Shown here: positions 3,601 through 59,098 of the stretch, piece by piece
Numbering within the stretch: position 1 is the stretch's first letter
Layout of the letters: each line of letters begins with the position of its first letter
DNA from: Asterionella formosa
Taxonomy: Eukaryota
Reading direction: 5' to 3'
Length of the DNA stretch: 61,133 nucleotides
Assembly: GCA_002256025.1 (NCBI GenBank)
Contig: NKIB01013264.1
Location: forward strand, 1 to 61,133
Program-made: the position numbers and the translations under genes
The notes under the pieces: model-generated
Seen by the model: the letters and a program-made list of their open reading frames with translations, nothing else
What the model was told of the DNA's origin: nothing
Databases searched by the model: none

Positions 3601-4276
3601 TATAGGAGTGACTTACGGTAGCTGCTAAAGTGCGTGTTACAATATCATACTCCGTAGTACGATGCAGAATACTACAGTTCCCAATCATCTCATCATGATT
3701 GATAAGATGATAATGTGATATCATGATAGGTTTACATCGATGCATACATCACCAAAGTATGATACATAATATTGAATAAAGTATATCACATAGCTATGAT
3801 GCATTGATCATAGAACTGTGATGATTTCTTAAAATGTTTATGATATAATTTTGATCAAAATATGATCATGTTAAAATAATACAATGACAATAAAATACGA
3901 TAAATATGTACGCTAGTGTTATCGATACATCACAGAATATAAATAAATAAATCATAGTTATGTTACTAAATATATAAATTCGACTTTTAATGTATACAGT
4001 AAAAGCCAACAGTTAATATGATAGTATTATATGGTGGATAGGATCTAAGGATACGGATGCCTTGATATGTACATCACTATAATATGATTTGTGATATGGA
4101 TTGATGCATATCACATACCGGTATCTTCAACAAATAGCCATCACGTTCATTGTCATGTCGTTTTTCCTTGTTATAGCTGTATTTATGCCTGCATGTGTAT
4201 TGTGTAAACACTACGCTGGCGGAACATGCATATTACACTGCTGTGCTCTGTTCAACAATTACTACACTCGGTTACC

Positions 4277-4615
4277 TGTTGGGAAAATGCGAGCTGACTG
4301 CCACAGGACAGGAGGAGTGAAGGGTATAGTAGAAACGAGAGAGAACAGTACGGTAAAGCCGTTACCAAGCTGTACCTGGGCTGACGTGGTAAAAGGCACG
4401 ACGCAAGCAAAAGCAATCAGAGGCCAGGAAATGTTAAAATGCAATGTGAGTAATAAGAGTGTTTCAAGACCATTATCTCGAAACAATCTAGTTAGTAAAG
4501 TGAAAGGTTAAGTTGACGACTTCTTCGTTACTATCAATTTCATCAACTGTATTCGATTGACACAGTACAAGGTTCAAGGCCTACGATACAGTCGATTACG
4601 GTAGTTGAAACAACA
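4277..4615 (+). repeat. Putative 5' LTR of copia element 1 (339 bp)
   Basis: Starts TGTTG and ends CAACA, directly upstream of the leader and gag ORF. Same terminal motifs as the paired LTRs of copia element 2. No partner LTR in the window. Confidence 0.65.
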
Positions 4616-6547
4616 TTGTTTCGAGATAAAAATAAAAAAAAATAAAAACATTAAAACAAAAGGAACCAGCCGTTTTGAGACTCACATAGAAGGCTGGAGT
4701 TTCGACATCTCAATCGCGGAATTGTACATTTTATAGATTTGAATAGCGCAGCTTAAGGCCGCAGCCACCAATCAAGGAACCAACAGCGACAATTTGAAGA
4801 GATTTGACCAACAAACCCCATGAGCGCCACCCCAGACGCAATGAGCAGCGGCAGCTTAGCGAGTGGACGCGGCAGCACTGGTGGGCGAGGGCGAAGGGAC
4901 AACCGTCTGCGCGAGAGCCATGGCGGGCGGGCAAGGACACAAGCAACAAGCAACAACCGTGGCATTTTCAAGGGCAGCACAGAGGGCATGAACGGAAACG
5001 TATTTGAATGCTATGAAGAACAAAGTGACAGACGCCAGTACGCCAAAACGTTAGAAGTTCTAGATGGATATGTGAGGAAAACACTGAAGTACTCTGAAGA
5101 CCTTGCCCCCCCCCCTTTGTTTGCCGACACCATGGCGGTTCCCACGGTAGACATGCCAGATGACCTAGATGATGATGTAGGACTGACCATGAAAATGATT
5201 TTCGCAGAAGAAGTAAAAGCGTAGCTATGTCAAGCGCAATCGTACCCTGAAGAGCAACCTAGCGACAGTGTATGCGGTGATTTGGGGCCAGTGTAGTGAT
5301 GACATAAAGGCAAAGGTCAAAACGCATGATGGCTACAAGGACAAGACTGCCAACAACTTTTTTTTTGGCTTCAAAAACAGATCAAGTCGATTACTTGTTT
5401 ACAGTTCGATCAGAGCAGGAACGGTTTCATTGCACTTTTGGACGCTCAGACCAGCTTCCTCACTTGTTGTCAGTTACAAGGACAGTCCACAGAAGAAGTG
5501 TTTGAAAGGATGAGCTGAGACCATCGAGTACCATGGCGGCACCATGGCGGCACCATGGCAGCAAATTATAAACTGGTACCCTTCCAGGATCAGGACGGGA
5601 ATGGGCGTAGCATTGAAGAGCGAAAGGAGATTGCGTGTGAACGCACCCTCGCAATCGCTTTGATTCGAAGTGCTGACCGCACCAGGTATGGCACCCTCAT
5701 CGCTGACCTATCAAACCAGTATGCAATGGGAAATGACCAGTACCCCACCGATTTGCTGTCAGGCCAAAGCCTGCTCGTCAACTACAGAACTCCAACGAAC
5801 ACCAATGTCAGGACAGATACACCACGCACCCAGCCGACTGGAAGCCCTGAGGCCAGTGCAATGACCTTTGCGCAATGCGGCGAAATCGCAGGCAACAATG
5901 GAGTGGTACACGATGGCATCATCTGTTACAACTGCCAAAGCCTAGGACACTATGCGGGAGACTGCCCTGACAGGCAGGGATCGACAACCTCAGGCACTAC
6001 ATTGACGCAGTATGCATACATGCTTGCACAGGCCGGTGACCCTGGGATTGATCCTAAGTGGATCCTTCTCGACTCGCAGTCGACAATCGCCGTGTTCAAG
6101 AACGCCGACATGCTCAGCAACATCCGGCGTAGCTTTCATGTACTCAGGGCACTCACAAACGGGGGTTACCAGGAGTCCAACATTGGTAGGAGATTTTCCC
6201 AACTTGGTAAGGTTTGGTACAATCGTGAATCAATTGCCAACATCCTCTCCCTTGCTGAGGTGCGCAAGGTATGCCGCGTCACCATGGACTCTGCGGACAA
6301 GCCAGCGATGCTTGTCCATAGACTCGATGGAACTGTGATGAAATTTTTTGAGCACCCCCCAGGACTATATGTCTTTAGTTGTAATAACGATACTAACGAC
6401 AGTGTTACAGGCTATACCATGCTATCCACAGTAGCAGAACAGAAGAAACTATTCTCACGACGTGAAATTCAATCAGCCAATGCAGCCAGAGATTTGTATA
6501 GAAAGATCGGGCGGCCTGCCAAGACAGAATTCCAATCCATCCTACGT
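4277..6547 (+). mobile_element. Ty1/copia (CoDi-like) LTR retrotransposon, 5' part only, frameshifted
   Basis: Gag-like ORF from 4820 (FKGSTEGMNGNVFECYEEQSDRRQY); CCHC knuckle CYNCQSLGHYAGDC; protease motif WILLDSQST; pre-integrase region ARDLYRKIGRP..EFQSILR, then abrupt loss of homology at ~6547. Confidence 0.9.
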
Positions 6548-6899
6548 GCCTGTGAATTAAGACGTTCAAGAAGGTGCATTGGTTGAATATTGATGGATTA
6601 GGGGAATCAGTATTGGGAAACCAACATTCCCGAATGGTGTGGTAAAGCTAAATGGTGTTTTACTTTGCATGACTGGATTGGTTTTTGCAAACATATATAC
6701 CCAAAGGAATTCCTCAAACCTTCATATCCTGACTTTTTAACTTTAAAAAATTGTAGTAAGCAAGCTAGCTAGCTTTATACCTTATGCACAGTGCCATTAC
6801 AATGTCTTTCCATAACATGGCAATATGAATGATTGATATGGCTGGTTTGATGATTACTAGTGAGTTTACAATTATAGTTTCTATGTCAATTTCAATTGA

Positions 6900-20069: not shown

Positions 20070-23000
20070 CTAAATCTCAAACCTGCTATCATTATCTCCA
20101 TACGGATCGTACTTTAAATTTTCCGCAACAGTCGCTGCTACTCTCGATGCATAGTAATCGTCGTCGTATGAAGCTTGCATGGCTTCCTTGTAACGACGAT
20201 TTCTAGTCGACGCATCTTGGGGTGGAGGCCTTAATGAAATCTTGGTGGAAGTCTTCTCAATGACCAGAGGGCTTCTGGAGGAAAAAGGGGAAAAAGGATT
20301 ATCACTTTTCCCAAAATTGAAGAAAGAATCATCATCATCATCTACAATAAAAGGATCAAACACATTCTTCTGCTCTATTGACGAAGAGATTCCAACAAAG
20401 TTGTCATTGGCCCGGGGAGAAAAGGGATCCTGATCTTGTGGAGGGTTTCCATTTGAACTAGAAGGAGCCAATGCTGATGACCCACTTTGCGATCGATTAG
20501 AAGATATTTGCTGCGACTTAGGTTGCGGAGATTCATTCGGCATCGCCTTTTGAGACGAGCCGTTAGCGGACATATCCTGCCTTTGTGTGGATCTACTTGG
20601 CGAGGAGTTCATGGGCATCCTTGCGTTAGCTGTAGAAGGTCGCAAGTCCCGTGGAGCCATTAGATCCTCCTCGGTAACACCATCGGAGGCTGACGTGTTG
20701 GCCGAAGACGCAGATGAATCGTCATCACGTGAGGCAACCAAATAATCTGGATCCTGGTCACCCCAGCGGTCTTGGTCAACATCTTCGTGATCAGTGTTTT
20801 GAAAGTACTGCAGAATGGATACAGCTTCTCTCGGTGTACGCGGCGGCGACGTACTGTGAGCAGAGACCACCTGTGGACTGTGCATTTCCTGCCAATCCTC
20901 GATCGCAGTGTCGCGCTCTAAAGGGCCTGGAGGGTAATCATGTTCGCTTCCTGCCCCAGATGATGTCGGGTAATCCAAGGCAGCGCCCGCCTCTACTTGA
21001 TCCAACATTTGTACAGCGGTAAGGGCGTCGTGGAACCGTACCGACTTCTTGTCAATATCGTCTCTCATCATTCCTTGTCCCCGATACGACTCTTTTAAGA
21101 CTGGAGGAGCTCTGTTTGGAGATCCTTTACCGGTTGGGGAATTTCCCCAAATGCACGCTTCGATGGTCTTTGCTCTAACTGAAACAGGCAACGGCTGCTC
21201 AGTCATACTGTCACAGCCTGCTGCACCAAATGAGGTCGGGTCATGAAACAAAGCAGATGAAATAGCAGTTGAACCAGCTTCGCTAGCTCCTGCATTGAAA
21301 CCTTCAATATTCATCCCGACAAGATGATGTAAGCTTGATGAATCAAGGTTCCGATCCATTGTGGTATGAGCTGACCCTCGCATTTGATGCCATTCCGGTG
21401 CTCCACTCAGCTGATAATTGCCTTCCTTGTTTGAAGACTCGAGCCCATCGTTCATTGCAGATTCATGGGTGGAACGATTCCCTTCAATGTCCTGATTTGG
21501 ACTCTTACGACGAGGTGAAATGGTAGAAGTTAAATTCCGTTGATATGCAAATTCTATTTTTCGATCAAAACTGCTTGTTTGATCCTGAACTGCATCAGGA
21601 CCGAGAAATTCAGTTTCCGAATCAGAAACATGAAGATTTAAAGGGTCACTCTCGACTGATAATGCGTTTTCCATCGAACTAGACTTATCAAGAATCGATT
21701 GGAATTGAATAGGCAATTCTGATTTCTTCGGAGTGGCACTTGTATTCCTCGAATCACTCTCGTCATATAATTCTTCTGAGTCTCGAAATTGGAGTTGATT
21801 GAGACCATAATCAGTTCGTATCACTGAATCAGCTGCCAAAGCAGCAAGCGACTTCACCGGAGACTCCGTGGCGAAACGGGGGACCATTTGGCTTGGCGGA
21901 GGACGAATCAAAGCATCTTTAGTTATCGATTCTGGAGCACTCGATATTGTAACCTTTGTCCCCATAGGAGAAGAAATCCCTTTCTCCTGGACTGGCGAAG
22001 AAATCGTGTCACTCGCATCCGATGCTTCTTGACGGGGTGGCCCTATATTGCTTGTTTGACGTGGCTTTGTCACTGGAACTGCTGACCAAGACTGGACCCT
22101 GCTAGAGCCGGCATCTTGTGATCTCTGATAAAATTCTCGTTGCTGCAATGTGGGTATTGATTTATGAGCCCAAGAAGGCTTTTTAGAATCTGATGTAATC
22201 TGACCAGCTGAAGGTGCAACAGAAGATAAGGCAGATTGGGTGGACAGGGGAGAAGGGCGTGTCTTCCAGGAATTCGATGGCAACACTGCTGAAGGCCCGA
22301 TTTTTGGTTCTCCTGGAGATGAAGGACGGTTCATACAGTTCTGTGCTGTTCCTGGAGAAAATGGTACCAAGGAGGGTAGAGCAGCAGAGCCATCGCTTGA
22401 ATACAATGATCTACTTGCCTGCATAGTATGCGCCTTGAAAGATTTCCCATGATCTCCATTCGACGATATCCAAGTTTGCGCAACAACGTTTGTACTGCTT
22501 GAAACACCATTTTTTTGTGATCCACTACTAGCAACTCCAGTTGCTGCTCGCTTCACTGTCGCTCCAAAAGCTGCTCTTAACATGGCCACAGTAGCTGGCG
22601 ATTCGGTTTCAATTACCACGCGATCATCACTTACACACGGCGGAAGCGAATCTGGTTCTTTCCCTGCAAGCTCTGGAGACGGTGGATTCGATTCACAAGG
22701 CCTCGTCCCCTGCGGCTGCCATGGCTCAAGCTTAGAAGAAGACAGTGTCTCTTGCTTTTGAGCCCACGGCGCAGTCTGCCGAGAAATAGAAGAGGTACTT
22801 TTCCGTTCAAGCACTTCAGGAAACTGGGCATTGGTCGGAACTTGTGACTGCTCTGATCTTGTGCCTATTTCATGTCGCATCGATGCTTGCTCCTGCTTTT
22901 GCCAAGGTTGGTCATGCCTCGCATCCTCGGTGAGTCCAACTGTCGTCAATGATGCACTCAACAGATCTACAGGAGGTTGAATATTATGAGTTGAGTTTGA

Positions 23001-24722
23001 CGAACTTGGTTTTTGCCAAGAAGCAAACGACTTCTGCTGGTGCTGCGGAGGAGGCCATTGTCTGGCCGGGGATTTTGGCTTAGTTTCTTGCGCTGTCTGC
23101 TGCGACACTGTTGAGGTTTTTTGCAATGATGGTTGCTTTACCTCAACCCTTTCTTTGCTATCATTCACCTGTAATGCTCGCCATGGTGAGATTTTGCTTG
23201 GCTGTTGAACTTCCTGAGCTGGCGAGCTTTGTCCTTGATGCTGCTGTGACGCTGTTGTTCTTGTCCAAGATACTTTCCCTTGTGCGCCGCCTTGATTGGA
23301 CATATACGCAACTGGAGTATGACTTGCTTTCAACGACATCTGAGCAATTCCCCCCTTCTCCGGAGTAGAACTAAGCAACGGACTAGAAAGCTGTTTCGGT
23401 GGAGGCCACTGGGGTGTTTTTGGCCTGTCTTCCTCAGCCGAAATGAGAGGAGTACTACTCCCGTTGTCCGAAGGAGAAGAAGAAATGAAACTAGGACTAG
23501 CGATTTGTTTCGGTGGCGGCCACTGTCGAGTTCTTGGTTTTTGCTTGTCATCACTTTCGGGATGCGGGTCCGCTTTCCCCTGCCACTTTTTAGAAGCACC
23601 TTGACTGAAGGACTTCATCTTTGTTGTTGCATGCGCACCCACAACATTCTCGTCGATGTCGCGCGATGGACTTGACGCAAGCTTTCTCATGTCGCCAGAG
23701 TCGGAACAACTCGACATACTTGCTTCTTTATTCGTTATATGATTGATCAAAGGCTCATTAACCACTTGAAGCTTCGTCGATGCCGATGGCTTCCGTCGTA
23801 GTGAATCTCGACTCCACGGAGCGGCTGACGTCAAAGGTGGATGTGCGAGAATGCTGCGCTGACTTCGATCTGTTAGTGATAAGTAATTTTGCTGGGGTAT
23901 AGATTCCGAAATGATTGGAGCTAGTTCTGACGATGCTTGCCTTATAGAATTTGTTGTTGATGGTGGTAATGCAGGTTTCGACATCGAATTTACCATCGAC
24001 AACGGCGGCGCCTTCGACGACAGAAAACTCCGACTTCGTTCAGCATGACTTGACGAAATGACTAAATTTTGATTCTGATTCGCTCGTGACGAGCTGTCGT
24101 CGTCGATCCTCATTTCAACAGTAGCATCTTGAATGTGAGTATTAACAGTGGGAGTGGATCTAGTGGATATTAGTGCCACCGCCTCTATCCTGGTTGGAGC
24201 AACAGACCTAGACCTCCAATCCCCACTTAATTTTGTGAAAGAGGTTGAAGTGACTTTTTCGGTAGACGATTCAACTCGATAGGAGGATAATGTCGGAGGC
24301 GAGTCCTCCATCGGCTGTGAGTCAGTCCAATTTGGAAAAGGTCGCGGAGGCGAACCATGTATCATCGAGGTTGGAGAGCATCCTCGTTCCTTGGACCGGA
24401 GTGGTGAAGACATTGGACTTGAACAAGGAGAATCTTTAAGTTGTCGGCGGTCATTAATTCTGTTCCGTCGCTGTGAGAGCGATTCTCCAGCAAGCCGTGA
24501 CGGCGCGGACGCTATTGATCGTTCTTCGGTGTGTAATCCCTTTGCCTTGCCAGCTTCCAAAACATCAACGAGCTTGGTTTTGCGAGTTTCAGTGGGCGCT
24601 TCTTTCGTAACTGAGGCGCTTGTCGACGTGACCGACTGAGATGACATCATCGCCCAATGTCGATGTTTCTTCGTTCGCTGCAGTCGCTCTGCCATTCGGT
24701 CCGATCTGCTCCGGGTCGCCAT
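20070..24722 (-). CDS. Large Ser/Pro/Gln-rich, probably intrinsically disordered protein (~1550 aa)
   Basis: 4.65-kb intronless ORF; first ATG at 24722 (MATRSRSD). Three QWPPP repeats and C-terminal DPF/NPF motifs; no globular domain recognised. Confidence 0.85.
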   Translation of the reverse strand: MATRSRSDRMAERLQRTKKHRHWAMMSSQSVTSTSASVTKEAPTETRKTKLVDVLEAGKAKGLHTEERSIASAPSRLAGESLSQRRNRINDRRQLKDSPCSSPMSSPLRSKERGCSPTSMIHGSPPRPFPNWTDSQPMEDSPPTLSSYRVESSTEKVTSTSFTKLSGDWRSRSVAPTRIEAVALISTRSTPTVNTHIQDATVEMRIDDDSSSRANQNQNLVISSSHAERSRSFLSSKAPPLSMVNSMSKPALPPSTTNSIRQASSELAPIISESIPQQNYLSLTDRSQRSILAHPPLTSAAPWSRDSLRRKPSASTKLQVVNEPLINHITNKEASMSSCSDSGDMRKLASSPSRDIDENVVGAHATTKMKSFSQGASKKWQGKADPHPESDDKQKPRTRQWPPPKQIASPSFISSSPSDNGSSTPLISAEEDRPKTPQWPPPKQLSSPLLSSTPEKGGIAQMSLKASHTPVAYMSNQGGAQGKVSWTRTTASQQHQGQSSPAQEVQQPSKISPWRALQVNDSKERVEVKQPSLQKTSTVSQQTAQETKPKSPARQWPPPQHQQKSFASWQKPSSSNSTHNIQPPVDLLSASLTTVGLTEDARHDQPWQKQEQASMRHEIGTRSEQSQVPTNAQFPEVLERKSTSSISRQTAPWAQKQETLSSSKLEPWQPQGTRPCESNPPSPELAGKEPDSLPPCVSDDRVVIETESPATVAMLRAAFGATVKRAATGVASSGSQKNGVSSSTNVVAQTWISSNGDHGKSFKAHTMQASRSLYSSDGSAALPSLVPFSPGTAQNCMNRPSSPGEPKIGPSAVLPSNSWKTRPSPLSTQSALSSVAPSAGQITSDSKKPSWAHKSIPTLQQREFYQRSQDAGSSRVQSWSAVPVTKPRQTSNIGPPRQEASDASDTISSPVQEKGISSPMGTKVTISSAPESITKDALIRPPPSQMVPRFATESPVKSLAALAADSVIRTDYGLNQLQFRDSEELYDESDSRNTSATPKKSELPIQFQSILDKSSSMENALSVESDPLNLHVSDSETEFLGPDAVQDQTSSFDRKIEFAYQRNLTSTISPRRKSPNQDIEGNRSTHESAMNDGLESSNKEGNYQLSGAPEWHQMRGSAHTTMDRNLDSSSLHHLVGMNIEGFNAGASEAGSTAISSALFHDPTSFGAAGCDSMTEQPLPVSVRAKTIEACIWGNSPTGKGSPNRAPPVLKESYRGQGMMRDDIDKKSVRFHDALTAVQMLDQVEAGAALDYPTSSGAGSEHDYPPGPLERDTAIEDWQEMHSPQVVSAHSTSPPRTPREAVSILQYFQNTDHEDVDQDRWGDQDPDYLVASRDDDSSASSANTSASDGVTEEDLMAPRDLRPSTANARMPMNSSPSRSTQRQDMSANGSSQKAMPNESPQPKSQQISSNRSQSGSSALAPSSSNGNPPQDQDPFSPRANDNFVGISSSIEQKNVFDPFIVDDDDDSFFNFGKSDNPFSPFSSRSPLVIEKTSTKISLRPPPQDASTRNRRYKEAMQASYDDDYYASRVAATVAENLKYDPYGDNDSRFEI

Positions 24723-26863
24723 GACAGTTCCTCGAAAGTCTTTTGCTTGCAATTCTTTGTCTTTAGTAGGCTAAGGGAAATATTTTAAAACGGCAATCAC
24801 GTCAATCAAATTTGGTACATAAGCTGGCGAAGGTCTGTTCAGCGTGTTGTTAATACAGAGGAATCGCCGACGTTTCCCGTTCTTCCTCCTGTGCTGCAGG
24901 TGGTTGTCGAGAGCGACAAAAAGAGTACAGGCGTATTATCATAGCTGTTAATTAGATCGTAAGATGTACTCCGAGTACAGTATAGCAAACCCTGTGGCTG
25001 ACGCCTTGACTTTTGTAGGAGGGGAGGAACTGAGCCAGCAACATCAGCATGGCTGGAAGCATTGGGGACGCATACTACCGATAATATTATAATTTATTGC
25101 GCAAGGAAGATTATGCATATAAAAAGCATAGAGGACCTTCCTTTACGACCGCATTGTTGCAGCGCGCGTAGTATCGAATTGTGCGTTGAGGATGCCATAG
25201 GTATGCTGCCATGCTTTTCAGCCTATCATGCAAACGTGAATGCTGACGAGGGAGGATGCTAAAGTCAAATGACCAACCGTCTTCTTAAATTATGTACGGT
25301 ATATAGAATCAATCGAAACGGATACAGTAGCAGGCAGTCGCGAAGGCGCGCAGGCAGGGGTTTGCATGGTTCCCTGGTTACCTACCTGGCGATTCCAGCT
25401 CCTCCAGCTATCGTCCTGTTGCCACTCGGGAACCTGTGCAAGTTGCGGTATTTTTGCTGAAAACAAAGATTTAGTTATCTTTATCCCATGGCAGAGAAAT
25501 ATTACAACGTGCCCCAGGTAAGCAAAGTCATTCAATAGTTAACAGGCACAGTATGGTGGAAATATGTATGACCAATCCATATGTATGTTGAACGACCCAT
25601 GCATGGATTTATATCGGGCAGCCAACACCTACCTGGCTGGTACCTGGTACCAGACAGCAGTAAAACCAACAGGATATGAAATTAATTAAATAGCACACAT
25701 TAGTAGAATTAACATTTGGTAAACGTTTTTCTCTGTGTCCGGCGATGATTGGATTCGTCATGATTTGCAATGCAGCTGTATATATTGTGTTTCCACTTTC
25801 CTTTACAACCCAGATCGAAATGTTAGTTTAAGCAAAATGACCACAACTTGCTCTGGTAGTCTACTTCTTATTCCCACCATTACAAAATGTACATATAATG
25901 ACTCCTACCTTGGTTGGACCACACTTATCCATAGCTAATACAGAAAGAACTGATAATACATTGCAACACGGAGCAGATGACAAAAAATATTGTAACTACA
26001 GTTTACAAACAATATGTAAATTACGACTCACTATCACTTCATTTCAACCTCAACCAAATGATAGAATGTAGATGAAGTGATTCATGAATATTTAATAGCT
26101 AGCTAGTATTAGAAGCCTCAGTTCTACTTGTTCTGTCGACAATTGTTCATTCATTATTGCTTCATCAGGTGGCTACTTGAACCAAATTCCCTCATTCATT
26201 TCAATAACTAGCAATTCATTTGAATCAAAGTTTCAAAATCAGAACTTGGTACATACTGACATGTATGTATGCGCAGCCATCAGGTACCGGTATTACTCCA
26301 TAATATACTGGTAAGTCATACCCGTCCAGTATCATTCTCTATTTATCTACCGGTACATCAATCTCCACGTCCGGTATTTTATATACAGGTAGACGAACCA
26401 TTATTCCTGGTACTCCGAGTACCGGAGTACCAGGTACTCCACCACCAGGTAAGTACGGAGTATGTAACAGGCCCCAGGAAAGTGGTGGTAGATTCAATGC
26501 ATCACATACCAATCTCAATCTATGGTATGCACCATCAGAATCCATCATCCGTTTTACTCTGTACAAAGGTATTGATTGCAGCAAGCCATTATTAGGTTTT
26601 TTCTGCACCTAAAATTCCAAGAACTGAAAAGGAAGTTTAACTTTGTCTATAGGCTTGTACCAACAACATTTGTCTGTAGGACGAGAAAAAATTCTCAATC
26701 ATTTCCTGAATATTAGGTGCGGAATAACCTTGGGCAGTTTACTTAGCCTGAAATTCCCCAGCTTCTAAGTAATTTTTAGGCTCTAAGTCATTTGTTAAGT
26801 CATTTTTATTTAGGGGCACATCGAATTTTTCGGGCATGAGAATTGCCGATTTTAGCATGACAG

Positions 26864-29005
26864 CCAAGGCATGAAATAGATCACGAGCTTGCTTGGATCT
26901 TTCAAATTGACGTTCAGTGTAGAATGTTTTGTTTTCTTCAACTGTATTTAACATTTGAGAATTTTCTGCCTTAATTGTTGTAGGAGGCTTGAAAACATAT
27001 AGATTCATCCCAATTCTTTCAAATCGAACTGGTTTGTCAGGCAAATGAACAATAAATGCATCTTCTTTCTCAGAGTTGTAGATAATTCTGTATCTATCTG
27101 TCATTTCGGCACAACTGAAGATGTTGGTGATTGCCTTGTCATTGAATAATACTTCTCCCTATTGTGGAAGATCAGCCTTCATATTAGTGACCATGGATCG
27201 ACCATTTGTGGCCAGGTGCAAGTTTCCGTTAGTCGGCACTCGAATGTTTTCAACAATTTTTTGATTGCAAAAGACTGTTACACTTGATTGATTATCCAAT
27301 AGTATCCAGTCTCCCATCTCAGATGCTTGATCAAATTGTAGTTTGATATGAGCTCCCGCCCATCCAACTCGATTGACATTCGCTTGTTGTGAAGCTTGTG
27401 ATGATGGTGGGTTGTTGATATTAACAGAGGTAACCGTACTCATTTCCGATGTAGTAGCCTGTGCATGGCTTTGTTGGGCCTTGTTGATTGCCCATTCCTC
27501 TTTGGGTTTATTCTTTTTGCGACATGACAGTGATTTATGTCCAGCTCTTCCACAGCAGTAACATTTTCCTTCTAACTGTGCAAACGATAAGTTCACATCT
27601 TCATCATCCTTCCCTGCATCCTTTTGTTCCCTGTCTTTATTATGATATCCTGGTTTCTTGTGACTGTTGGGTTTATTTGTTACGTCGAACCTGTGGTTAC
27701 TGAGAACATTATTTGATTCTGTGATACTCTTTGGGTATTGATCATTGCCGAGTGTTCAGCCCGGTCATAATTGATCCATATTTGGCCTTATCTGCATTAT
27801 CGAGGTATAAATAGGCCATAAATTGACTGAAAGCTTGTTCGCGAAATTTATCTTGTAGCTTGATGTCTGTCTTGTTGTACCCATCCATGGCTTCAATGAG
27901 CTTGGTGAGGATAATGGGTCCTTCAATGTGTGACTTGAGCACATCTTGTGCCACACAAAACCTCTTGGTGTAGTCTTGTAGACTTTCTCCTTCTTTTGCT
28001 TTGTATGTAAAAAGCGTTCTCATTGCATCTAAAATGATCGACATTGAATATCAATTTTCTTGAAAATTTATTGCGTGTTCTTTAATTGCCATAAGCAATT
28101 TTATTGGGTTATTTTAGATCCTATTGTAATCGGTTCTCGCTTCAATCTTGTTCTTCATGGCTTTGTTGCATCTTTCCCAGAGCAACGCATATGCCTTGGA
28201 ATTATTGTTTTCGTAGGCCTGTACCCTTTTACTGTAGGTGTCATAATCAGCCTTGAACTCAATCTCATATTGTCGATTCTCTGCAGCGGGATCTTCTTCT
28301 GTTGTTGCAATGCTCACTTGCATTCTTGGCTTCCATGCCGATGTGTTAATTGGTTCTAACAACTTTAGCGCCGTTCCTATGTCGTTGCCATAGTCGAACA
28401 CTTTCTTGATGTAGTTGATGAGGTACTCAGTAGTAGTCTCATAATCAGATGCCTGCTCCACTGATCCGAGGTAGTAGTTATAGTCATTAACTGACTTCTT
28501 GATGGTGTGAGAAGCATTATTGCTCCCTCCCTTGGCTTGAAACTTGCCCTTGGCCTGAGCCTTCTTGGAAAACTTTCCTTTGCCACTCATGATTCGCCTT
28601 GTGCGATTTCTTCAGACTCTGGTTGTCTGGTACCCTCAGATCTTGTCTCCGGACTCTCAACGGTCCACCTGTTGTTGATTGTAATATTACGGCTCTTCCT
28701 TGCCAGCTAATTCTACTAAAACAGTTGAAATTGCGTCCCAAAGCCCTCTATTGCTTTCTTGTATCCTGTAAGGACACGTCAGGGAACAAATAGGCTGTAG
28801 ATATGAACAACGATGTTGCAGTAATCGATTTTAATAGTTCCTAAGAGTTTTAGTAGAATTATGGATTTTACTGGCGATGCAGAGGATTGTTTTCGAATTC
28901 TGAGTTTTCTCTGGTAGTACCATATTCTTTTTTGATTCATTCAATTCAATATGTAGTAGGTAATTCATACCGGAATTTTTCTTTCCTAAAATAATTTCTC
29001 CAACA
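26864..29005 (-). mobile_element. Copia element 2, 5' half (5' LTR, gag, zinc knuckle, protease), inverted
   Basis: Gag ATG at 28590 (YYLGSVEQASDYETTTEYLINYIKK); knuckle CYCCGRAGHKSLSC; protease WILLDNQSS; ends at ARDLFHAL at 26864. Confidence 0.93.
28723..29005 (-). repeat. 5' LTR of copia element 2
   Basis: Reverse complement aligns end to end with 34063-34339 (about a dozen substitutions, two short indels). Preceded by GTCAT on the element strand (ATGAC at 29006-29010). Confidence 0.95.
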
Positions 29006-29904
29006 ATGACCCGCCGGAATGTTTGGACTTTCAAGGAATGGGATCAAGATCAACATCATGGTTTGAAAATTTGATTGTGTGCAGTGATGAGGGTATCACT
29101 CAGAAGAAATTAAAGTATGGCCGATGACAATTAACCTGCCTTGTCAATTGCGTTGGGTGTGGTGTGGCATTGGAGCATGGTAGTGCATTGAATGTCATGT
29201 TGTTGGTGTGAATGATTTAGCTCATAATGATTTCATTTTTTGGAAATCATTCAGTTGCTGCTTTGGCTGGTGGAAAGAACAAATCCGACTGGCGATTCTT
29301 GTTCGACTATGTGAACAGGGGTAAATTACAAAAGGCATTGAGTTTCATTGAAGATAAGTGGAAGCAAGCAAGCATATACAACAATTAACAGAACTTACCA
29401 CTGCTTGGGAAACGTTTTGAGACATGAGGAACATTGCAGCTATAGCTGCTGGAAGGATCAAAGGTGATGCTGGTTCCTTGGATATTTGGATTGTGAGTAA
29501 GATATACATTGTCGAGATGTTCTATTTGAAAAAAATATATAGTTTGATTGTTGGCATTACCGTAATTCTCATGGAAGCGGCCATACAACAATCAACAGAA
29601 CATATCCTAATGAATCAACCAAGACAACAGGCGCAATTTCATGATTCCTGTTTTCAAATAGGGTCTTGTTTCTTTTAGGGTACCAGAAGTGGCTTCTGGT
29701 TTGCGTTGTCATTGTCGATTTACAATAATGAAGTAAAAAAGATATTTGTGATTAGATAACCTACAGAAACAATGCTATTTTAGAACATTGGAAAAGCCAA
29801 CAATTGAGCACTAAAACTTGCTGCCGAGCGCTGATTTGATATAGTACACGTAGAAAATAAATCATAGCATTATAGTTAAAATTTAACGGCTGATTGTCGT
29901 GACA

Positions 29905-30918
29905 ATTCCCGCTCCAGCTGTCGTCTTGCCATTCGGGTGCTTATAAGTAATAATTTGGCTCTAAGTAATTTCTTAAGTAATTTTTATTTAGGGGCAATAT
30001 GGGGCACATCCAATTGTTTGGCAATAAAAATGCCGATTTTGGCATGACAGCCAGAATAACGGCATTGTACCGGCGCTGCAAGAAGGTCAACCTGCAAGGG
30101 TTTCCCAAGCCTTGAACACAAGAATACTCGCAGGCAGTCTCCACCCTCGGTATTGTCTTACTACCTTCAGAAGGCATGTAGCCATCGAGAAGGGTATTGT
30201 TGAGACAATTCCCGCTCCAGCTGTCGTCTTGCCATTCGGGTACTTCTAAGTAATAATTAAGCTCTAAGTATTTTTTATTAGGGGCAATATGGGGCACATC
30301 CAATTGTTTGGCAATAAAAATGCCGATTTTGTCATGACAGCCAGAATAACGGTATTGTACACAGAAATGGTAAAACAAGCGTGAAACAAACGAGAATGAT
30401 TGTAACATGCAACATCAATGAAAATTGAACATGATGTTTGGAGCAACTAAAGTATGAAATGCGATGTAATAAGCAGCGTCAAATGAGAAATAGAAAAACT
30501 GTTTTGGGTTAGAAATGAAGTAAAAATATAGGAGTTTTAATGGAGACATATGCATTGTGACGTTGTAGTACTTACACAGGCAAATACATAACGATGCAGA
30601 TCTCAATCGGGTTCAGCTTTTTCTTCTTTTCTGCATTTTTTCGGTCTTCGATTGTGTGATGGAAAGTCAACAATATTGCCTGTGTAAGTACTACAATGTC
30701 ACAATACATATGTCTCCATTGAAACTCCTATTTTTGCTTCATTTCTAACCAAAAACAATATTTTCTGTTTCTCATTTGATGCTACTTATGGAATATTTCA
30801 TATCACACTTTGGTTGCTCCAAACATAATGCTCAATTTTCATTGATATTGTATGTTACAATTATCTCATGTGTTTGATGCTTGTTTTACCATTTCTATGT
30901 ATACTACTGTTATTATGG
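29905..30918. repeat. Cluster of the dispersed GGGGCAATATGGGGCACATC repeat family, including a ~240-bp-arm inverted repeat
   Basis: 29905-30070 duplicates 30205-30360; 30340-30582 is the inverted complement of 30676-30918. Related copies at 26760-26866, 34860-34915, 43840-44310 and 58270-58680. Confidence 0.85.
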
Positions 30919-33900
30919 GTACACCGTCAATTAAATGATTTCAAGACAATAATTCACATGAATACGATCAACAATAGTCCAGTGACTACCAATGATATCA
31001 AGATTGCCGAGAAAATTTTCGGACCTGACGTCGGAACACTAAAAGGCAAGACAATTCGTCGCAAGCTGCTGCCAGTCATGAACGACTACATCGAGATTCC
31101 TAAAGAGCTTATCAAAGCTCAACGCGAAGTGACTCTTTGCATGGATGGAATGAAAGTGAATGGACAATCATTTCTCACAACAATTTCTCGAAATATTATG
31201 TATAGGACAGCACGATGGGTCAAGAATCAGACAGCTGATGTCTATCGAGATGCTTTGACTCAGGTGTTCCGTGTTTATAATACCGGAGGATTTAAAAATT
31301 ACAACAATCCACTGTGACAACGAGTTTCGACCTTTGATGGCACAACTTTCCAATTAATTTCAAGTCACTTTGAACTACGCAAACCCACAAGAACATGTTC
31401 CTGAAGCGGAGCGAAAAATCGAGTGATTAAAGAACGCGTGCACGCAGCTTATCATCGATTACCTTTCAAACATTTGCCTCAACTGATGATTAAGATTCTA
31501 GTCACAGAATCTGCAAAGAAACTGAATTTCTTTCCGGCAAAGAACAGGATATCCCCGTACTTCAGTCCTCGTATGATTTTTCATCAATGAAACCTGGACT
31601 ATGCTCGACATTGCCAGTATAAATTTCGCACTTATGTCCAAGCACATGACGAACCGGTGTTTTCAAACACTAATGCACCACACAGCCTAGATTGCATTTA
31701 TCTACGCTACAATGACAACGTACAAGGAAGTCATGAATTATTACACCTACCTACAAATTCATTGATCACTAGACGAACAGTTACTCCTCTACCACTTACC
31801 CCAGCAGTCATAAATCAAGTACACGCCCGTGCTGTGTAGGAAAATATGCCAGATGGTCTCAAGATATCAAATCGAATGGGACAAAAATGTTATGATAGTG
31901 CTTGGATTGCAGGAGTGCATTATGAAAATGAAGCATTTGAAGATGCACAAGACAAAGATTATGAAGATCAACAAGCTAGTGACGATGAAAGCAATGATGA
32001 CATTCTCGGAGAAGACTATAATGAAATGACTCCGGATGAAATATATGAAGCAGAACAGCTTGAATTAAACCATATCCAAGAGGATGACCCTGAACATGAG
32101 GGCAACAAAGAAAATAATGTTGAAATGAATGCAGATGAAATCCAAGATGAGGATGAAGAACCAGTAAATGAAAATGAAGAGGCAATGTTAGAAGTGAATC
32201 CAAGCACTGAGGATGACACAGACCCAAATGTTAGAACTGCAAGGTCTGGAAGAGTCTCAAGACCACCATCAAAACTAACTATAGTCCAACATCAATTGCA
32301 TACCCGAGCACACTGTCAAGAAGAATACACAACTGATAATGCGAAAGTGATCACAATGACAATGTGTTATCTGAATGAGATGTCTATTGATATAGAAGCA
32401 TTTCACTTTGTTCAGTCATACAGCTTAAGAAAAGGCCTCCAGAAATTTGGCCAGAAAGGAAGAGATGCTGCGTATAAGGAAATGAAACAACTACATGATA
32501 GAGTTGTATTTGAACCGATCAGGATTGAAGACCTAACAGAGATCGAAAAGCGACGTGCAATGGAAAGTCTAATTTTTTGGTTGAAAAGAGAGACAAGAGT
32601 ATTAAAGGCAGTGCTTGTGCCAATGGCAGTTCGCAACGTGAATACATGGAAAGAGATGAAGCAGCTAGTCCGACTACCATGACTGAATCTGTTATGATAA
32701 CAGCAACAATTGATGCAAAGCAAAATCACGATGTTATGACCGCAGATATACCCAATGCATTTGTGCAAGTGGATATCGATGAGAAATGAAAAGGGGAACA
32801 AATCATTATGAAGATTAGAAGTTTACTTGTCAATATGTTGACAGAACTCAGCCACGAGCCTTATGAAAAATGTGTTGTTTATGAAGGCAATAACAAGGTC
32901 CTATATGTTAGGATGATCAAGGCATTATATGGCATGTTACAGTCATCATTGTTCTATTACAAGAAACTTCGGAAGGATATTGAGTCAATTGGATTCAAGG
33001 TCAATCCATATGATCTATGCGTTGCAAATCGCATTGTTAATGGCAAACAGCACACAGTTACTTGCCACATAGACCATTTGAAATCTAGTCAAGTGGACAG
33101 CAAAGTGAATGATCAATTTTTGGAATGGCTCAAAACGAAATACGCTTCTGACGAAATTGGTGAAGTCAAGGTCATGCGTGGAAATAAGCATGATTATTTG
33201 GCAATGACACTAGATTACTATCTTCTAGGATTGTTGAGGGTGGATATGACCAAATATGTGAAATCAATTATTGATGATTTTCCAGAAAAACTTCAAGGTG
33301 CCGGAAAATTTCCATGGACAGATAAATTATTCACTGTTGATATGAAATCAAAGAAACTTGAACATGAAAAAGCAAAAATATTTCATACTTTTGTTCTGAA
33401 AGGAATCTTCCTATGTAAGCGAGGAAGACAGTACATTCAACCAGGAATTGCATTTCTGGCAACCCGAACTACCAAACCAAATGAAGGTGATCGGGCAAAA
33501 TTAGTCAAGATCATGAATTTCTTGAAAGCAACTCAGAATGCGGTTGCAACTATGAGTGCTGATGACACTCAGAGCATTAAATGGTATGTTGATGTGGCGT
33601 TTGCAGTACACAAAGATTTGAAAAGTCACACAGGAGCTACATTGTCACTTGAAAACGGAATTATTTGTTCTATGTCTACGAAACAGAAAGTGAACACTAG
33701 AAGTTCGACTGAAGCAGAATTGGTTGGTGTCAACGACATTATATCAAAGGTGTTGTGGACGAAATTATTTATTGAAGCACAAGGACACAAGGTAACTACG
33801 AATGTCATTTACCGTGACAACACTAGCGCAATGAGGCTAGAAGAAAATGGAAAAGCAAGTTCAGGAAAACGCACACGACATTTCAACATCAAATATTTTT

Positions 33901-34339
33901 ATATTACTGATCTTATTGAAAGAAAGGAAGTACAAATTAAGTACTGTCCAACGGATGCAATGATTGCAGACTACATGACGAAACCACTGGTTGGAACGAA
34001 TTTTATTCATTTTCGTGAGCAAATTATGAATTCAAAGTGAGCATCCGTGTCCAGCAGGAGTGTGTCGGAGAAATTATTCTAGGAAAGAAAAATCCCGGTA
34101 TGAATTACCTACTACATAGTGAATCGAATGAATCAAAAAAGAATATGGTACCAGAGAAAACTCAGAATTCGAAAACAATCTACATCGCCAGTAAAACCCA
34201 TAATTCTACTAAAACTCTTAGGAACGATTACAATCGATTACTGCAACATCGTTGTTCATATCTACAGCCTATTTGTTCCCTGACGTGTCCTAACAGGATA
34301 CAAGAAAGCAATAGAGGACTTCGGGACGCAATTTCAACA
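30916..34339 (+). mobile_element. Copia element 2, 3' half (integrase, RT, RNase H, 3' LTR), degenerate
   Basis: IAEKIFGPDVGTLKGKT; integrase IHCDNEF and EHVPEAER; RT TADIPNAFVQ, KALYGMLQS and HIDHLK; RNase H WYVDVAFAVH, SSTEAELVGV, DNTSA, RTRHFNIKYF and ADYMTKPL. Copia domain order. Confidence 0.95.
34063..34339 (+). repeat. 3' LTR of copia element 2 (277 bp)
   Basis: TGTCGG...TTCAACA. Preceded by the short purine-rich AGCAGGAGTG and followed by the TSD GTCAT (34340-34344). Confidence 0.95.
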
Positions 34340-35225
34340 GTCATCTTTCTCCTTCTCCTGTAACATCACGCCGAACCGATGCCAACAAAGTTTACAATCA
34401 CGCCCGTGCTGCTTGCTACCTCCACAACCACCACAAGTCACAGTTCTTCCAGCACCATTGGCTCCCGTGCTGTTTTAACTATTGGTTGCTGCTTCTCCAG
34501 GCCTGATTGGACATTTCATTTATTTTGCTTCGACAACATGAGAGAAGTGTAAGTTGGCAATTGTTGATGAACATGCATTGACAATTTTTCAAACGAATTT
34601 TCCATTAACTCAATTTCTTTTTCACTATTTATTCAACTCCCTGATCGTCATTGTTGCTTCTTAACTTTTGATTTCCATTGCTTAAAAACATCATCTCGAA
34701 ATTTTCGATGCTTGTTACAATCATTCTTGTGTGACTATTTTTCATGCATATTTGGGGCTCCATCCATTTTTGATGTGGCTGCTTTCGCATCAAGATTCTA
34801 CTCCTGATGTTGCTCGATGGTCCCTGCTGCTCAAACCTAAAATTAACTGCCGAAAAATCCACTGTGCCCCTATATTGCCCCTAAATAAAAATTACTTATA
34901 GATACTAAAACCTACTTAGACACCCACAGTTCTCATCGAAAAGCAAGACGATATCTACTTATGGTGTGTATTGCTCTTACAGACGTGTACACGCAGGCAT
35001 GCGACCACCTCGGGCATGTATAAATTGCCTTCAGCAAGATCACAATACGCGTAAGCCTTTCCTTTTACTTTGCCATTGTGTCAAACAACAGTAAAGAGAT
35101 TGATGATAAAAACGAGCCGCAAACAGTTTTCCACGCAGCATTACGGCTTACGATCCGACACGCCCATGAATCATTCTTCTTGGCGTTGATAGCAGGTTTC
35201 TCTTTGAAAGCACTATTGTCTTATT

Positions 35226-36122
35226 ATGTCCATGCTTAAGTTATGTCGATTGAGCATAGCTATTATTCAAGTTTACCTTGTCATGCTACCGGTACTCTTC
35301 TCGTCAGCCCTTGCATCATTTTCCTCGCCTGTCACATTGAAGCGACATCGTTTCGCCGTACTCGCTGTCGGTAATGGCTTTGGCTTGGGAAATCTCGAAA
35401 AGTCAGCGTCTAGTACAAAAATGGAGGACATATCTGCACTGCCGTATTTAGAAGTGAAGACGCGACTGCTGGATTTGTTGCCGAAACTGATGGGAAGCTC
35501 AGAAGAATTCAGACTCCTAGAAATATATGTGAATGCCCTAGAAGACAAGTATGCTCCTCCACAGACTCTAGAATTTCTTAATCTCGCCATGGGTGGCGAG
35601 TGGCAGTTGGTAAGTTGTAAAGCTTAGGGTATTACAGGTTCAATGCTCGTATAGTATAGACTAACTCCTGACCAGCTATTTTCAACGAATCTCAAAGGAG
35701 GACCCAAAACAAACTTCAGATTGCGGGATATGTTTCAGATTGTGGAGCCGCAACAGCTTAAAGGCGCCGTGACGAACACTGTTCTCTGGGACTATGCCGA
35801 AGACTCAGTTACATTTGATGCCACGGGTACTTTTTCAGTCAAATGCAATTATTCCATCAATCAGGGTGCCCGTATGAGTATGAATCTTGATGAACATATT
35901 TTGAAACCGTCCCGAGGTAGTAAGATTCCCAGTGATGTGCCTGCATTAGCGGGTCTATTATATCGGGCCATGCCGACCGAGTTTTTTGATCCGAGCAATC
36001 ATGGCATGGATACAACTTATTTGGATGGGAACCTAAGAATTGTGCGAATTACAGGTGCTCAGTTTGAGGGTGTTCGAAATATATTTATCCGTAGGGAAAG
36101 TTTTGACATTATTTCAAAGTAG
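35226..36122 (+). CDS. PAP/fibrillin-family plastid lipid-associated protein, 2 exons (35226-35609, 35676-36122)
   Basis: A 66-bp intron (GTAAG...CTAAC...CAG) joins the ORFs in frame to give GEWQLLFST; C-terminal DTTYLDGNLRIVR. Signal-peptide-like N-terminus ending ALASF; alternative ATG at 35283. Confidence 0.8.
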
Positions 36123-43839: not shown

Positions 43840-44820
43840 TTCCCGCTCCACCTATTGTCTTGCTATTCCTGTACTTCTAAGTAATTTTAAGCTCTAAGTA
43901 TTTCTTCAGTAATTTTTATTTAGGGGCAATATGGGGCACATCGAATTATTTGGCATTAAAATTGCCGATTTTAGCATGACAGCCATAATAATGGTAAAAT
44001 ACATAGAAATGGTACAACAAGCGTAAAACACATGAGAGTGATTGTAACATGCAACATCAATGAAAATTGAACATGATGTTTGGAGCAACTAAAGTATGAA
44101 ATGTGATGTAAAAAGTAGTGTCCAATGAGAAATAGAAAAAATTGTTTTGACTTAGAAATGAAGTAAAAAATAGGAGTTTCAATGGAAATGTGGTATGCAT
44201 TGTGACATTGTAGTACTTACACAGGTAACATTGACTTTCCATTACCACACAATCAAAGACCGAAAGAAGAAGAAAAAGCTGAATCCAATTGAGATCTGCA
44301 TCGTTATGATGTGTAGATGATCTGGTTGCTGCAACCTGACACTAATAGCAGTATTTCCGCCACAGTCATTCCTCCCACCAAACAAGCAACCCTGATCATT
44401 CCATTCTGAACGAGCATGATCGCCAGGCTGCTCCAGCACTATTGACTCTCTCTAGCTGAGTATTGTTACGTAGCTTGTGATACGAACTCTTAGTATAACG
44501 ATAGCAAAGCGCGTTAGTACAAGAAAAGCATGCATTGCTTGGCGGGAATATTGACATCATGGTCAACGACTATACAGATCAACAAATAAGATCAACAATG
44601 GCACGACAATACATCTTCAAAGAGTAGGAATTGCTACATACATATGCCCTTGTGTAGATAGTTACAATCGAATCAAAACGACAGTGCGGAACAACAAACA
44701 ACGATGGAAGCGATCAAAACGGACCATGGAAGCAATCAAATCGGAAATTCGACAATCATATCTACGATCACATTCAGTGTTTGAATGTTGTACTCACCGA
44801 TCCGCTCTAACAAGCGTAAG
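43840..44820. repeat. ~1-kb dispersed repeat, high-identity inverted copy of ~57712-58680
   Basis: Long near-identical reverse-complement match; spurious ORFs 44057-44248(-) and 58263-58496(+) are nearly identical. Confidence 0.9.
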
Positions 44821-51297: not shown

Positions 51298-52768
51298 CCA
51301 GTTAAAAACTGCATTGACCCACTGTTTTATCCCATTCATTTGATTAATTCGACTAACAATTAGCTCGCCTTTCTCTGAAATTTGTTCGGAAGTATTGATG
51401 TCATAAGGTGTCGGTACATTAGCATCCGGTTCCTAGTTAAATTGATCATCTGGTTCAGAAGATATTTATATTCATCTAGACGTAAAATTCAGTCTCAGTG
51501 GGTCAATGCAGTATATGAAAATTTTAACATACCTGAAAGTAATTTAATATTCGTTGGTGAACACGGATTATCCTGTTTGGTTCAAAGCGAAAAGACATAA
51601 AATGCATGATGCTCAATACATACCGGTACATTAAACCGTTACCAGTACCATTCCTGGCCCTATAGATGTACCAGTTTTGTGCGCAGAGGTACCACCTAAA
51701 AACTGCCTTGAACCTCTATTTCACTACGTTCGATCGATTAGTACGACTAAACGCTGATATATTCATTTCAATCATCTTTTAGATGCTCCAGATATTCACG
51801 AGAGGTGGAGGATTATGATTGGACAAACGAATCAACCAGGTTCCATCGACAACGGAAGATATGATTGTTTGTAATGATGCGTTTATCCATTATAGAGGTT
51901 CAAAGCGGTATATAAAAAGGTCTTAATACCGTAGAATTAATTTATGTTCTACAGGGAAGACGGATTACAACGTTTCATAATGCATGTTCGGCATCAATTT
52001 CCGGTACTACATGCACTTGGTATGATTTCTACAATGGGGCTAAACAAATCTATGTGCGATCTCAATATACATATGATAATAAGGTTTACAAAATTCATGT
52101 ATGTGTACAAATGCCTGTATACTCCGAGGTCGTGGTAAATCGCTAATTTGTCCAAAAAAGGTCCATCGACACTTTCACGTATAAATATTGATTATACAAA
52201 ATGAATGTTCAGTGTAACTCGTTCATACTTAGAGAAGCGCTACATACTCAGCTACAGATGGATCGTTTCAGATTTGTAAACTATCAGAAATTCGTGACAA
52301 AACGTGTTATTATACGTATAGTGGTTCAAAGCGGTAAAATAATTACCGATAAAGGTTCAAAGCAGTTTTTAAGTGGTACCTGGTACCAGGTACTGATAAT
52401 GGTCTGCCTACATAGATACCGGTATTACACAGCCGAGCCGGGTTTCATCAATTTTATTTACAGAATTATTATTGACAAGGTTATGGATGAGACATAAAAT
52501 GCGAAAAATCTATATTTATCGTTGTACACAATATAAGATGAGAACTCCAAACTTGGGATAACCCGTGCTTTTTACTTTTTTTTTCTATCACCACTTTTGA
52601 CCTAAATTAACGAAAGATCGACATCCAATCGGTAGAGAACTAACAGTATGACCCCATCCGGTATATGCTCAAAATACATTCTGGAGCTTAAGAAATAGAA
52701 AATGAACGACTTTTTATAACAAAACGTGTTTTTAATACCATCAGCGGGTCAATGCAGTTTTTTACTGG
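51298..52768. mobile_element. Non-autonomous TIR element (Tc1/mariner/pogo-like, TA TSD), ~1.47 kb
   Basis: TA|CCAGTTAAAAACTGCATTGACCCACTG ... CAGCGGGTCAATGCAGTTTTTTACTGG|TA: 27-bp TIRs with 2 mismatches. Internal partial TIR at ~51496. Confidence 0.85.
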
Positions 52769-58680: not shown

Positions 58681-59098
58681 ATTGGGCTGATAAGATTAGT
58701 GCGCGGCTAATACATACCGGTAATCGGTTCATTCACGATGCATTCCCACGCACGACTTCGTCAGTCATCATGATTGATACGTACCAGGTACCAGGTAACT
58801 GGATCACAGAGGGGTCACAGGTTTTGCTTGCATATTCATTCACATTTAGCATTGACCACACCGGCAGCCCTACTGTTGCTTTGCTTGGTGTAAATCTACT
58901 ACCGGTATATGGTTTGTTGACTCATCTGCACCTAAAGGCATCTTCAACAGCTTCACCATTCAACTTCACTTTTCTCTAGTGCAGTTGTTATTTCAGAGTG
59001 GTTCCGCTGTCTCGCCTAGACCTTGTCACTGCTGTGTGTTAGGCGTGCTTTCGGTAATTCATTGCTTGAGTTTACCTGAAACGCTGAAAGCGAGCCCG

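Follow-up and report, generated by a model that had tools for sequence, protein, structure and literature searches.

A perfect complement between LTR and leader suggests self-primed reverse transcription in Ty1/copia elements of a diatom lineage

Introduction

Self-priming of reverse transcription is established for the Tf1/sushi elements of the Ty3/gypsy retrotransposons (excerpts of PMC7175516 and PMC4600332). According to these excerpts, the primer binding site (PBS) of Tf1 and Tf2 (S. pombe) and of Tj1 (S. japonicus) lies beside the 5′ long terminal repeat (LTR) and complements the element's own LTR; in Tf1 the complement is the first 11 nt of the mRNA. Here we describe a comparable arrangement in two decayed retrotransposons, E1 and E2, of the diatom Asterionella formosa (NCBI GenBank assembly GCA_002256025.1). 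The stretch analyzed, hereafter the window, is the 61,133 nucleotides from position 1 to 61,133 of contig NKIB01013264.1, forward strand. In E1, E2 and their relatives the duplex is 15-17 bp long. The Tf1/sushi elements as those excerpts present them have no tRNA-type PBS and have further RNA structure in the unique 5′ (U5) region of the LTR; in the diatom elements no PBS arm begins with TGG, and a U5 structure is predicted. They differ from Tf1, which belongs to the gypsy superfamily, in having a copia-type reverse transcriptase (RT; Pfam RVT_2) preceded by the integrase, in a duplex that usually includes the terminal A of the LTR, and in their diatom host. Further, the transcript start and the RNase H cleavage have been demonstrated in Tf1, as the excerpts state, whereas we infer both in the diatom elements.

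Self-priming has also been predicted from sequence for the TAR lineage of plant Ty1/copia elements, within which Houba and Osr-1 had already been suggested to self-prime (PMC6317226, in the sections available). TAR elements resemble ours in being copia elements with a complement of at least 10 bp between the 5′ LTR and the 0-5 bp after it; host kingdom and lineage are different. The same sections describe half-tRNA priming in Drosophila copia and in Osser and Bianca of plants. The fungal GalEa copia elements have no tRNA-type PBS, and they hold a conserved structure at the PBS position, the 'Conserved Hairpin Site' (parts of PMC5445492). This structure is a short local palindrome or hairpin just after the LTR, for which those parts of the paper report no LTR-internal complement, whereas in the diatom elements the partner is located within the LTR, 83-167 nt upstream.

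Copia elements abound in diatom genomes, and some of them are activated by stress (PMC2806351, in part). The described diatom copia elements (CoDi), for example Blackbeard of Phaeodactylum, are like ours Ty1/copia elements of diatoms. A term search of the main text of the founding paper on them (PMC2806351) returned no text on a PBS, on tRNA or on priming, and PMC8147415 had no text on these subjects either. A full-text literature search gave no report of the way in which diatom copia elements prime reverse transcription, and none of self-priming in diatom retrotransposons; other papers or supplements could hold one.

Results

The self-complementary site of E2

The 5′ part of E2 lies on the minus strand. 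On that strand the 15-nt sequence TAATTCTACTAAAAC, the putative self-primer site, lies inside the 5′ LTR (28847-28861) and is followed by CTTAG. Its exact complement, GTTTTAGTAGAATTA, stands directly after the last LTR base (28708-28722, minus strand) and is the putative PBS. The base before the self-primer site is an A (28862) preceded by C, and this CA at the 5′ boundary of the site marks the putative transcript start. Three exact copies of TAATTCTACTAAAAC were found in the window, at 28708-28722 (+), 28847-28861 (-) and 34201-34215 (+), so that both LTR copies of E2 contain it. The count remained three when up to two mismatches were allowed, while shuffled versions of the sequence gave a mean of 0.25 matches and never three (0/100).

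All 61,133 bases were also scanned for inverted complements that pair perfectly over 12 nt or more around a loop of 60-400 nt. Only four complements of at least 15 nt were recovered, namely those of E1 and E2, one at 51308 and one in a foldback repeat. The 20 shuffles of the window yielded complements of at most 14 nt. The preliminary description of this DNA had reported for E2 an exact 15-nt complement between the LTR and the sequence after it, a site beginning 138 nt before the LTR end, and a 5′ LTR ending in CT where the 3′ LTR ends in CA. The first was borne out by the three copies, which exceed what shuffling gives; the distance was confirmed, and so were the differing ends when both LTR copies were aligned.

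The complement is present in all testable relatives

Twenty-one gag N-termini were aligned and used to fetch the corresponding DNA, which comprised 20 metagenome loci and one locus from the genome collection (L021). Thirteen of the 21 loci were testable, and every one of them carried a perfect complement of 15-17 bp at the junction of LTR and leader. In 12 loci (L001, L002, L004, L005, L006, L007, L008, L011, L012, L015, L017 and L021) the complement lay upstream of gag, with a loop of 65-150 nt and a second arm ending 28-135 nt before the gag start. The thirteenth, L016, is the most distant relative (43% gag identity); its 15-nt pair sits where the polypurine tract (PPT), LTR and PBS adjoin, at the far end of the contig. 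As a control, perfect inverted repeats of at least 15 nt with a loop of 40-400 nt were sought throughout the 69,850 bases of these loci, and those 13 pairs were the only ones.

The other eight loci do not hold the sequence needed. The contigs of L003, L013 and L014 show a PBS-like arm after ..AAC but stop short of the expected LTR site; L010 lacks the necessary length, L018 is truncated at its 5′ end, and L009, L019 and L020 start inside gag. In L016, a motif at position 213 has no complement and was dropped as a candidate in favor of the LTR-PBS junction at the opposite end of the contig.

Anatomy and covariation of the duplex

E1, E2 and the 13 loci were tabulated as 15 elements. Twelve distinct arm sequences occur among them, and all 238 of their 238 base pairs are Watson-Crick, with no G·U. 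The helix measures 15 bp in four elements, 16 bp in nine and 17 bp in two. The arms are A+T-rich and differ between families, and no PBS arm begins with TGG (0/15). The LTR arm begins at the A of a CA dinucleotide, or one base past it, in 15 of 15 elements. In 13 of 15, the first base of the 3′ arm is the terminal A of the LTR itself; the exceptions are E2, which has a T there, and L016, where the arm begins one base later. On the loop side, the helix is limited by a C·C mismatch in 13 of the 13 elements tabulated for this feature, followed by a conserved CT(T)AG; the PBS arm is preceded by (T)TTCAAC. The motif that follows the primer site is present in L012 as four tandem copies of CTAAGACT (144-180 of that locus) in the repeat (R) region of the LTR.

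When 13 elements were placed in a fixed register, 194 of 195 cells paired; sliding the partner by one or two positions left 67-95 of 195. Two to four pair types were seen at 12 of the 15 positions. The sole unpaired cell is the last base of the E2 5′ LTR (28723), a T. Since the 3′ LTR and the relatives carry an A at this position, the CT end of E2 is a mutation that followed insertion and shortened a 16-bp duplex to 15 bp. A coupled change separates E2 from its closest relatives, L001, L002 and L017 (gag identity to E2 91-92% for L001 and L002), in which a C to T change in the LTR site is matched by a G to A change in the PBS.

E1 and its relationship to E2

E1 lies on the plus strand. Its putative self-primer site, TTATCTCGAAACAAT, occupies 4473-4487, with the putative start A at 4472 and a C before it. 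The PBS arm, ATTGTTTCGAGATAA, is at 4615-4629 and starts with the terminal A of ..CAACA. Remnants of gag and protease follow in three frames (4820-6583, +), with a match to the zf-CCHC domain. The element is truncated after the protease, and a second LTR is absent from the window.

In the preliminary description E1 and E2 were independent families, not alignable outside their common geometry, in which a similar spacing (138 and 142 nt) was conserved. Our results differ on each of these points. The flanks of the arms are common to both (CCA before the site, CT(T)AG after it and CAAC before the PBS arm), and their gag-protease regions share 25.7% identity over 315 aa. E1 and E2 are therefore distant relatives and not unrelated families. 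Measured from the putative start A, the LTR end lies between 83 and 167 nt away across the 15 elements, and the likeness of the two values in the window is partly coincidence. Scans of viral contigs with the gag alignment and with the gag of E1 returned no relatives.

Predicted RNA structure

Minimum-energy folding from the putative start to just past the PBS predicted the whole helix in each of the 11 elements folded. An RNAalifold consensus of ten sequences predicted the closing helix, a CUUAGG/CCUA stem and a stem in U5. The predicted U5 stem shows compensatory changes (CCUC/GAGG, CCCC/GGGG and UCCC/GGGA), with both sides changed in four of the ten sequences at one pair, and it was also obtained in single-sequence folds. 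A covariance model was built from those ten sequences with E1 left out. When run without filters, it placed E1 (4472-4634) as the best match in 12 kb, at 27 bits and a rough E-value of 2e-4, the next match having an E-value of 0.85. This match covers the two ends of the model, the interior being not alignable. With default filters, the model reported only the two LTR copies of E2 in the window, and not E1.

Class of the elements

The E2 open reading frame (ORF) at 32790-34040 gave a weak match to Pfam RVT_2 (E-value 3.6e-5; 23.9 bits, below the cut-off of 31.6). The corresponding match of orf2 of L021 was above the cut-off, at 48.2 bits. The E2 ORF had 1149 homologues at an E-value of 0.001 or less, many of them annotated PF07727. 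Named homologues of E2 proteins came from Epithemia clementina and Attheya (pol ORF) and from Fragilaria crotonensis (gag). The RVT_2 match of L021 (best-scoring stretch 621-690) comes after an integrase SH3-like domain (residues 299-353); the domain search of L021 did not detect the rve core. The traits of Ty1/copia elements (Pseudoviridae) found here are RVT_2, integrase before RT, LTRs of the form TG...CA and a 5-bp target site duplication (TSD), GTCAT. The CCHC knuckle of gag, matched by zf-CCHC in E1, is visible in the translation of E2, and the Pfam search gave no match for the gag pieces of E2. Membership of the Tf1/sushi clade of Ty3/gypsy was considered and rejected on the basis of the copia-type RT and of the integrase that precedes it. 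E1 and E2 would thus work like Tf1 while standing outside its clade.

Architecture of E2

The two LTR copies of E2 are about 95.7% identical, end in TG...CA and are inverted relative to each other, as repeat pairs I1, I2 and I6 and the alignment indicate. Alignment of the copies places the 5′ LTR (283 nt, TG...C[T]) at 28723-29005 on the minus strand, and contigs of RNA libraries break at 28724. The 3′ LTR (277 nt), which contains the second copy of the site at 34201-34215, was placed by alignment at 34063-34339 on the plus strand, and the covariance model matched 34214-34341. Each LTR is flanked on its own strand by the TSD GTCAT, which stands upstream of the 5′ LTR at 29006-29010 (minus strand) and after the 3′ LTR at 34340-34344 (plus strand). 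The LTR limits had been described as fixed by the LTR pair and the TSD; the limits and the GTCAT duplication hold, but the pair is inverted and the element rearranged.

The leader, from the PBS to the gag ATG, occupies 28591-28707 on the minus strand; the ATG is at 28590 and corresponds to the invariant M8 of the gag alignment. It is followed on the same strand, in the inverted 5′ part, by remnants of gag and protease (26862-28590) whose ORF translations show the CCHC knuckle and several stops and frameshifts. The 3′ part, with the region of integrase, RT and RNase H, lies on the plus strand at 30931-34031, is collinear with residues 69-1104 of L021 orf2 and includes the weak RVT_2 match. A PPT-like AGCAGGAGTG stands directly before the 3′ LTR (34053-34062, +), and the same motif precedes the 3′ LTR in L021 and L016.

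The ORFs of L021 map onto the window in two blocks. Residues 71-576 of orf1 and 26-65 of orf2 correspond to 28503 down to 26862 on the minus strand, and residues 69-1104 of orf2 to 30931 through 34031 on the plus strand. Because both blocks are collinear with L021, E2 appears to be one insertion that was cut once, between protease and integrase, with nothing lost. The inversion relative to the 3′ part would then take in the 5′ part and some 0.9-1.9 kb of the flank upstream of it. Both breakpoints adjoin copies of another repeat family, at 26761-26866 and in the right arm of a palindrome at 30341-30918. This suggests that the segment 26862-30931 reflects either a transposon-mediated rearrangement or an assembly error, and the inversion of E2 may have its source in the latter. 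In contigs of RNA-library run X2, position 29006 is joined to 34360 and position 29024 to 34361, the two sides being on opposite strands, as would be expected of an unoccupied, un-inverted site. Since its LTRs are about 4% diverged and its gag is broken by stops and frameshifts, this copy of E2 is old and dead.

The palindrome at 30341-30918 is near-perfect, a center of 92 nt being enclosed by arms some 240 nt long whose pieces are 84-93% complementary, and it may be a foldback element or one resembling a miniature inverted-repeat transposable element. Its repeat family is also represented at 29893-30505 (in tandem), 43900-44277, 58276-58636 and 34850-34898.

Individual relatives

L021 has LTRs that are 100% identical over 246 nt and two long ORFs of 576 and 1112 aa. 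On these grounds it is a young and probably active copy, and the same architecture thus exists in a young element. Its 3′ LTR diverges 18 nt before the expected end, which may be due to a chimeric join. L021 and two proteins, P0136 and P0138, are diatom copia sequences in records titled as bacterial metagenome-assembled genomes, evidently through eukaryotic contamination of those bins. In L016, positions 5074-5252 read PPT, LTR (164 nt), PBS arm and leader, and the leader would exceed 360 nt. This arrangement could be either a tandem array that shares an LTR or an assembly running from the 3′ LTR into the 5′ leader. L021 encodes gag-protease and pol in two frames that overlap at 1995-2007, implying a frameshift, while L016 has a single ORF of 1601 codons (229-5031). 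Expression strategies therefore differ within the group.

RNA-library contigs

Seven runs from four studies, including freshwater and lake-water metatranscriptomes, were considered; six are recorded as RNA and one was guessed to be so. Each holds 0.09-0.17 of the sampled words, and all consist of assembled contigs. Four runs, one per study, were aligned to the window at 88% likeness. Their contigs cover the LTRs, leader and gag of E2, and contigs of X2 (28508-28744) and X6 (28400-28752) span the LTR end, the PBS and the leader. In three runs, contigs break at 28724 with differing continuations, which marks the end of the LTR. Differences in depth between LTR and internal sequence are not interpretable for contigs.

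A host gene with a PAP_fibrillin domain at 35129-36000 (+) contains a 66-nt GT..AG intron that is spliced (35608 to 35675) without mismatches in three runs. Because of this, the libraries hold true RNA of the same or a near-identical organism, with DNA carry-over being possible.

Other features of the window

The complement at 51308 is a 17-nt perfect inverted pair (51308-51324 and 51496-51512) around a loop of 171 nt. A related unit about 390 nt further on has a 12-nt complement (51708-51719 and 51892-51903) and a loop of 172 nt. Both the CA and the CAACA flanks of the copia elements are missing from the 51308 unit, and there is no gag in its vicinity. An unbroken reading frame of 1566 codons occupies 20070-24770 on the minus strand; the Pfam search gave no match for its 1566-aa product at an E-value of 0.01 or less. 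A second ORF with a PAP_fibrillin domain is found at 58856-59887. The regions 43.9-45.8 kb and 57.0-58.6 kb are connected by large inverted repeats.

Discussion

Our analysis has shown a perfect duplex between the LTR and the start of the leader in two elements of A. formosa and in every relative that could be tested. Taken together with what is known of Tf1, this leads us to conclude with good confidence that E1 and E2 are decayed Ty1/copia elements of a diatom lineage whose reverse transcription was most likely self-primed in the manner of Tf1. In the mechanism that we propose, the A of the conserved CA within the LTR would be the first base of the transcript. By folding back over an R-U5 loop of 83-167 nt, the leading 15-17 nt of this RNA would form a perfect duplex with the sequence whose first base is either the last base of the 5′ LTR or the one that follows it. 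The element's RNase H would then cut at the inner end of this duplex, beside the conserved C·C mismatch (13/13), which is a candidate cleavage boundary. The freed 3′ end would prime minus-strand DNA synthesis, and plus-strand synthesis would copy the primer back into the PBS, so that a change in the LTR site would be passed on to the PBS. Such copying would account for arms that differ between families and yet are perfectly Watson-Crick within each element.

Self-priming predicts the pattern that we observed, that is, a match to the element's own LTR at the LTR edge, a site that begins at CA, arms that vary only between families and the apparent lack of a tRNA-type PBS. An RNA that starts at the CA would also be expected to give the helix a sharp limit on its 5′ side. 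In the preliminary description, priming without tRNA had been deduced from a duplex whose length and position, though not its sequence, are conserved. That proposal is supported by the 13 of 13 testable loci, the 12 arm sequences and the 238 of 238 Watson-Crick pairs, and by the recovery of E1 with the covariance model.

Several points weigh against this conclusion. The transcript start, the RNase H cleavage and the priming itself have all been deduced from sequence, and the copying of the primer as the cause of the missing G·U pairs is drawn from the standard scheme of reverse transcription. Eight of the 21 loci fell outside the test, their contigs being too short or 5′-truncated. Near-duplicates among the loci (L001/L002/L017 and L005/L006) reduce the independent arm sequences to 12, and not 15. 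Assembled contigs cannot show RNA ends, and the table of molecule starts and ends was empty in four runs. Finally, E1 and E2 are both dead, so that neither copy gives evidence of function.

With this in mind, we considered other explanations of the duplex. The long-range helix could be a leader structure that serves packaging, dimerization, translation control or strand transfer in an element that uses another primer. Functional long-range pairings do occur in the leaders of retroviruses and Ty elements, the predicted fold holds further conserved stems, and priming in the diatom elements is read from sequence. However, 13 of 15 elements have a 3′ arm whose first base coincides with the terminal A of the LTR, the place where a PBS must lie, and no other PBS candidate follows the LTR, with none of the 15 arms starting with TGG. 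The 5′ arm in turn begins at an initiator-like CA in all 15. Selection for pairing alone should also have left some G·U pairs or mismatches, in contrast to the 238 of 238 pairs that are Watson-Crick. Based on these observations, we regard a leader structure without a role in priming as unlikely.

It is also conceivable that a host tRNA, half of a tRNA or another cellular small RNA pairs with the sequence that follows the LTR, whose complement within the LTR would then be incidental. Half-tRNA priming is known in Ty1/copia lineages (PMC6317226, in part). No tRNA genes were found in the window, and this explanation bears on a host tRNA set that extends beyond the window's own scan. Nevertheless, PBSs that complement tRNA are conserved, whereas the relatives carry 12 different A+T-rich arms, none of the 15 starting with TGG. 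A perfect match of each arm to its own LTR would not be predicted, and the double change between E2 and L001/L002/L017 (C to T and G to A) tracks the LTR and not a fixed cellular RNA. Priming by a cellular RNA therefore seems very improbable. As for chance, or an artefact of assembly or repeat structure, E2 is rearranged and some public contigs are perhaps chimeric, as the PPT-LTR-PBS order of L016 and the L021 3′ LTR that stops 18 nt short indicate. Against this stand the absence of a 15-nt complement in 20 shuffles of the window, its presence at the same place in 13 of 13 testable loci from many contigs and nowhere else in 69,850 bases, and the fact that arm and LTR share a contig at a distance of no more than about 170 nt. 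Chance is effectively refuted, and we give explanations of this kind next to no weight. Self-priming thus remains the reading that we favor.

The finding has practical consequences for the study of these elements. The junction offers a simple signature by which intact copies can be found and the likely promoter and transcript start located in the LTR. By our reasoning, annotation filters requiring a PBS of the tRNA type, such as the LTRdigest step in PMC7466962, could discard such elements. Independence from a tRNA primer could further bear on silencing based on tRNA fragments, although this is speculation (PMC7472051, in part). The elements also provide a natural setting in which to test whether PBSs inherit their sequence from the primer. 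If the PBS is rewritten in each cycle, this would explain arms that evolve fast and yet are perfectly coupled, with no G·U pairs.

In conclusion, it is possible, if rather doubtful at present, that self-priming is both general and ancestral as the mode of replication in a deep diatom (stramenopile) clade of Ty1/copia elements, with a primer of 15-17 nt that is drawn from the start of the RNA and pairs as far as the terminal A of the LTR, this base included, and with a PBS rewritten in each cycle. A self-primed copia clade in stramenopiles would widen the known range of this mode, which comprises gypsy elements of fungi and vertebrates and, by prediction, copia elements of plants. The idea that hairpin or self-priming is older than tRNA priming in LTR retrotransposons has been raised before (PMC3601003, in part). 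If this wider reading is true, the diatom elements, together with TAR and Tf1/sushi, would support the view that self-priming is old and that tRNA priming came later.

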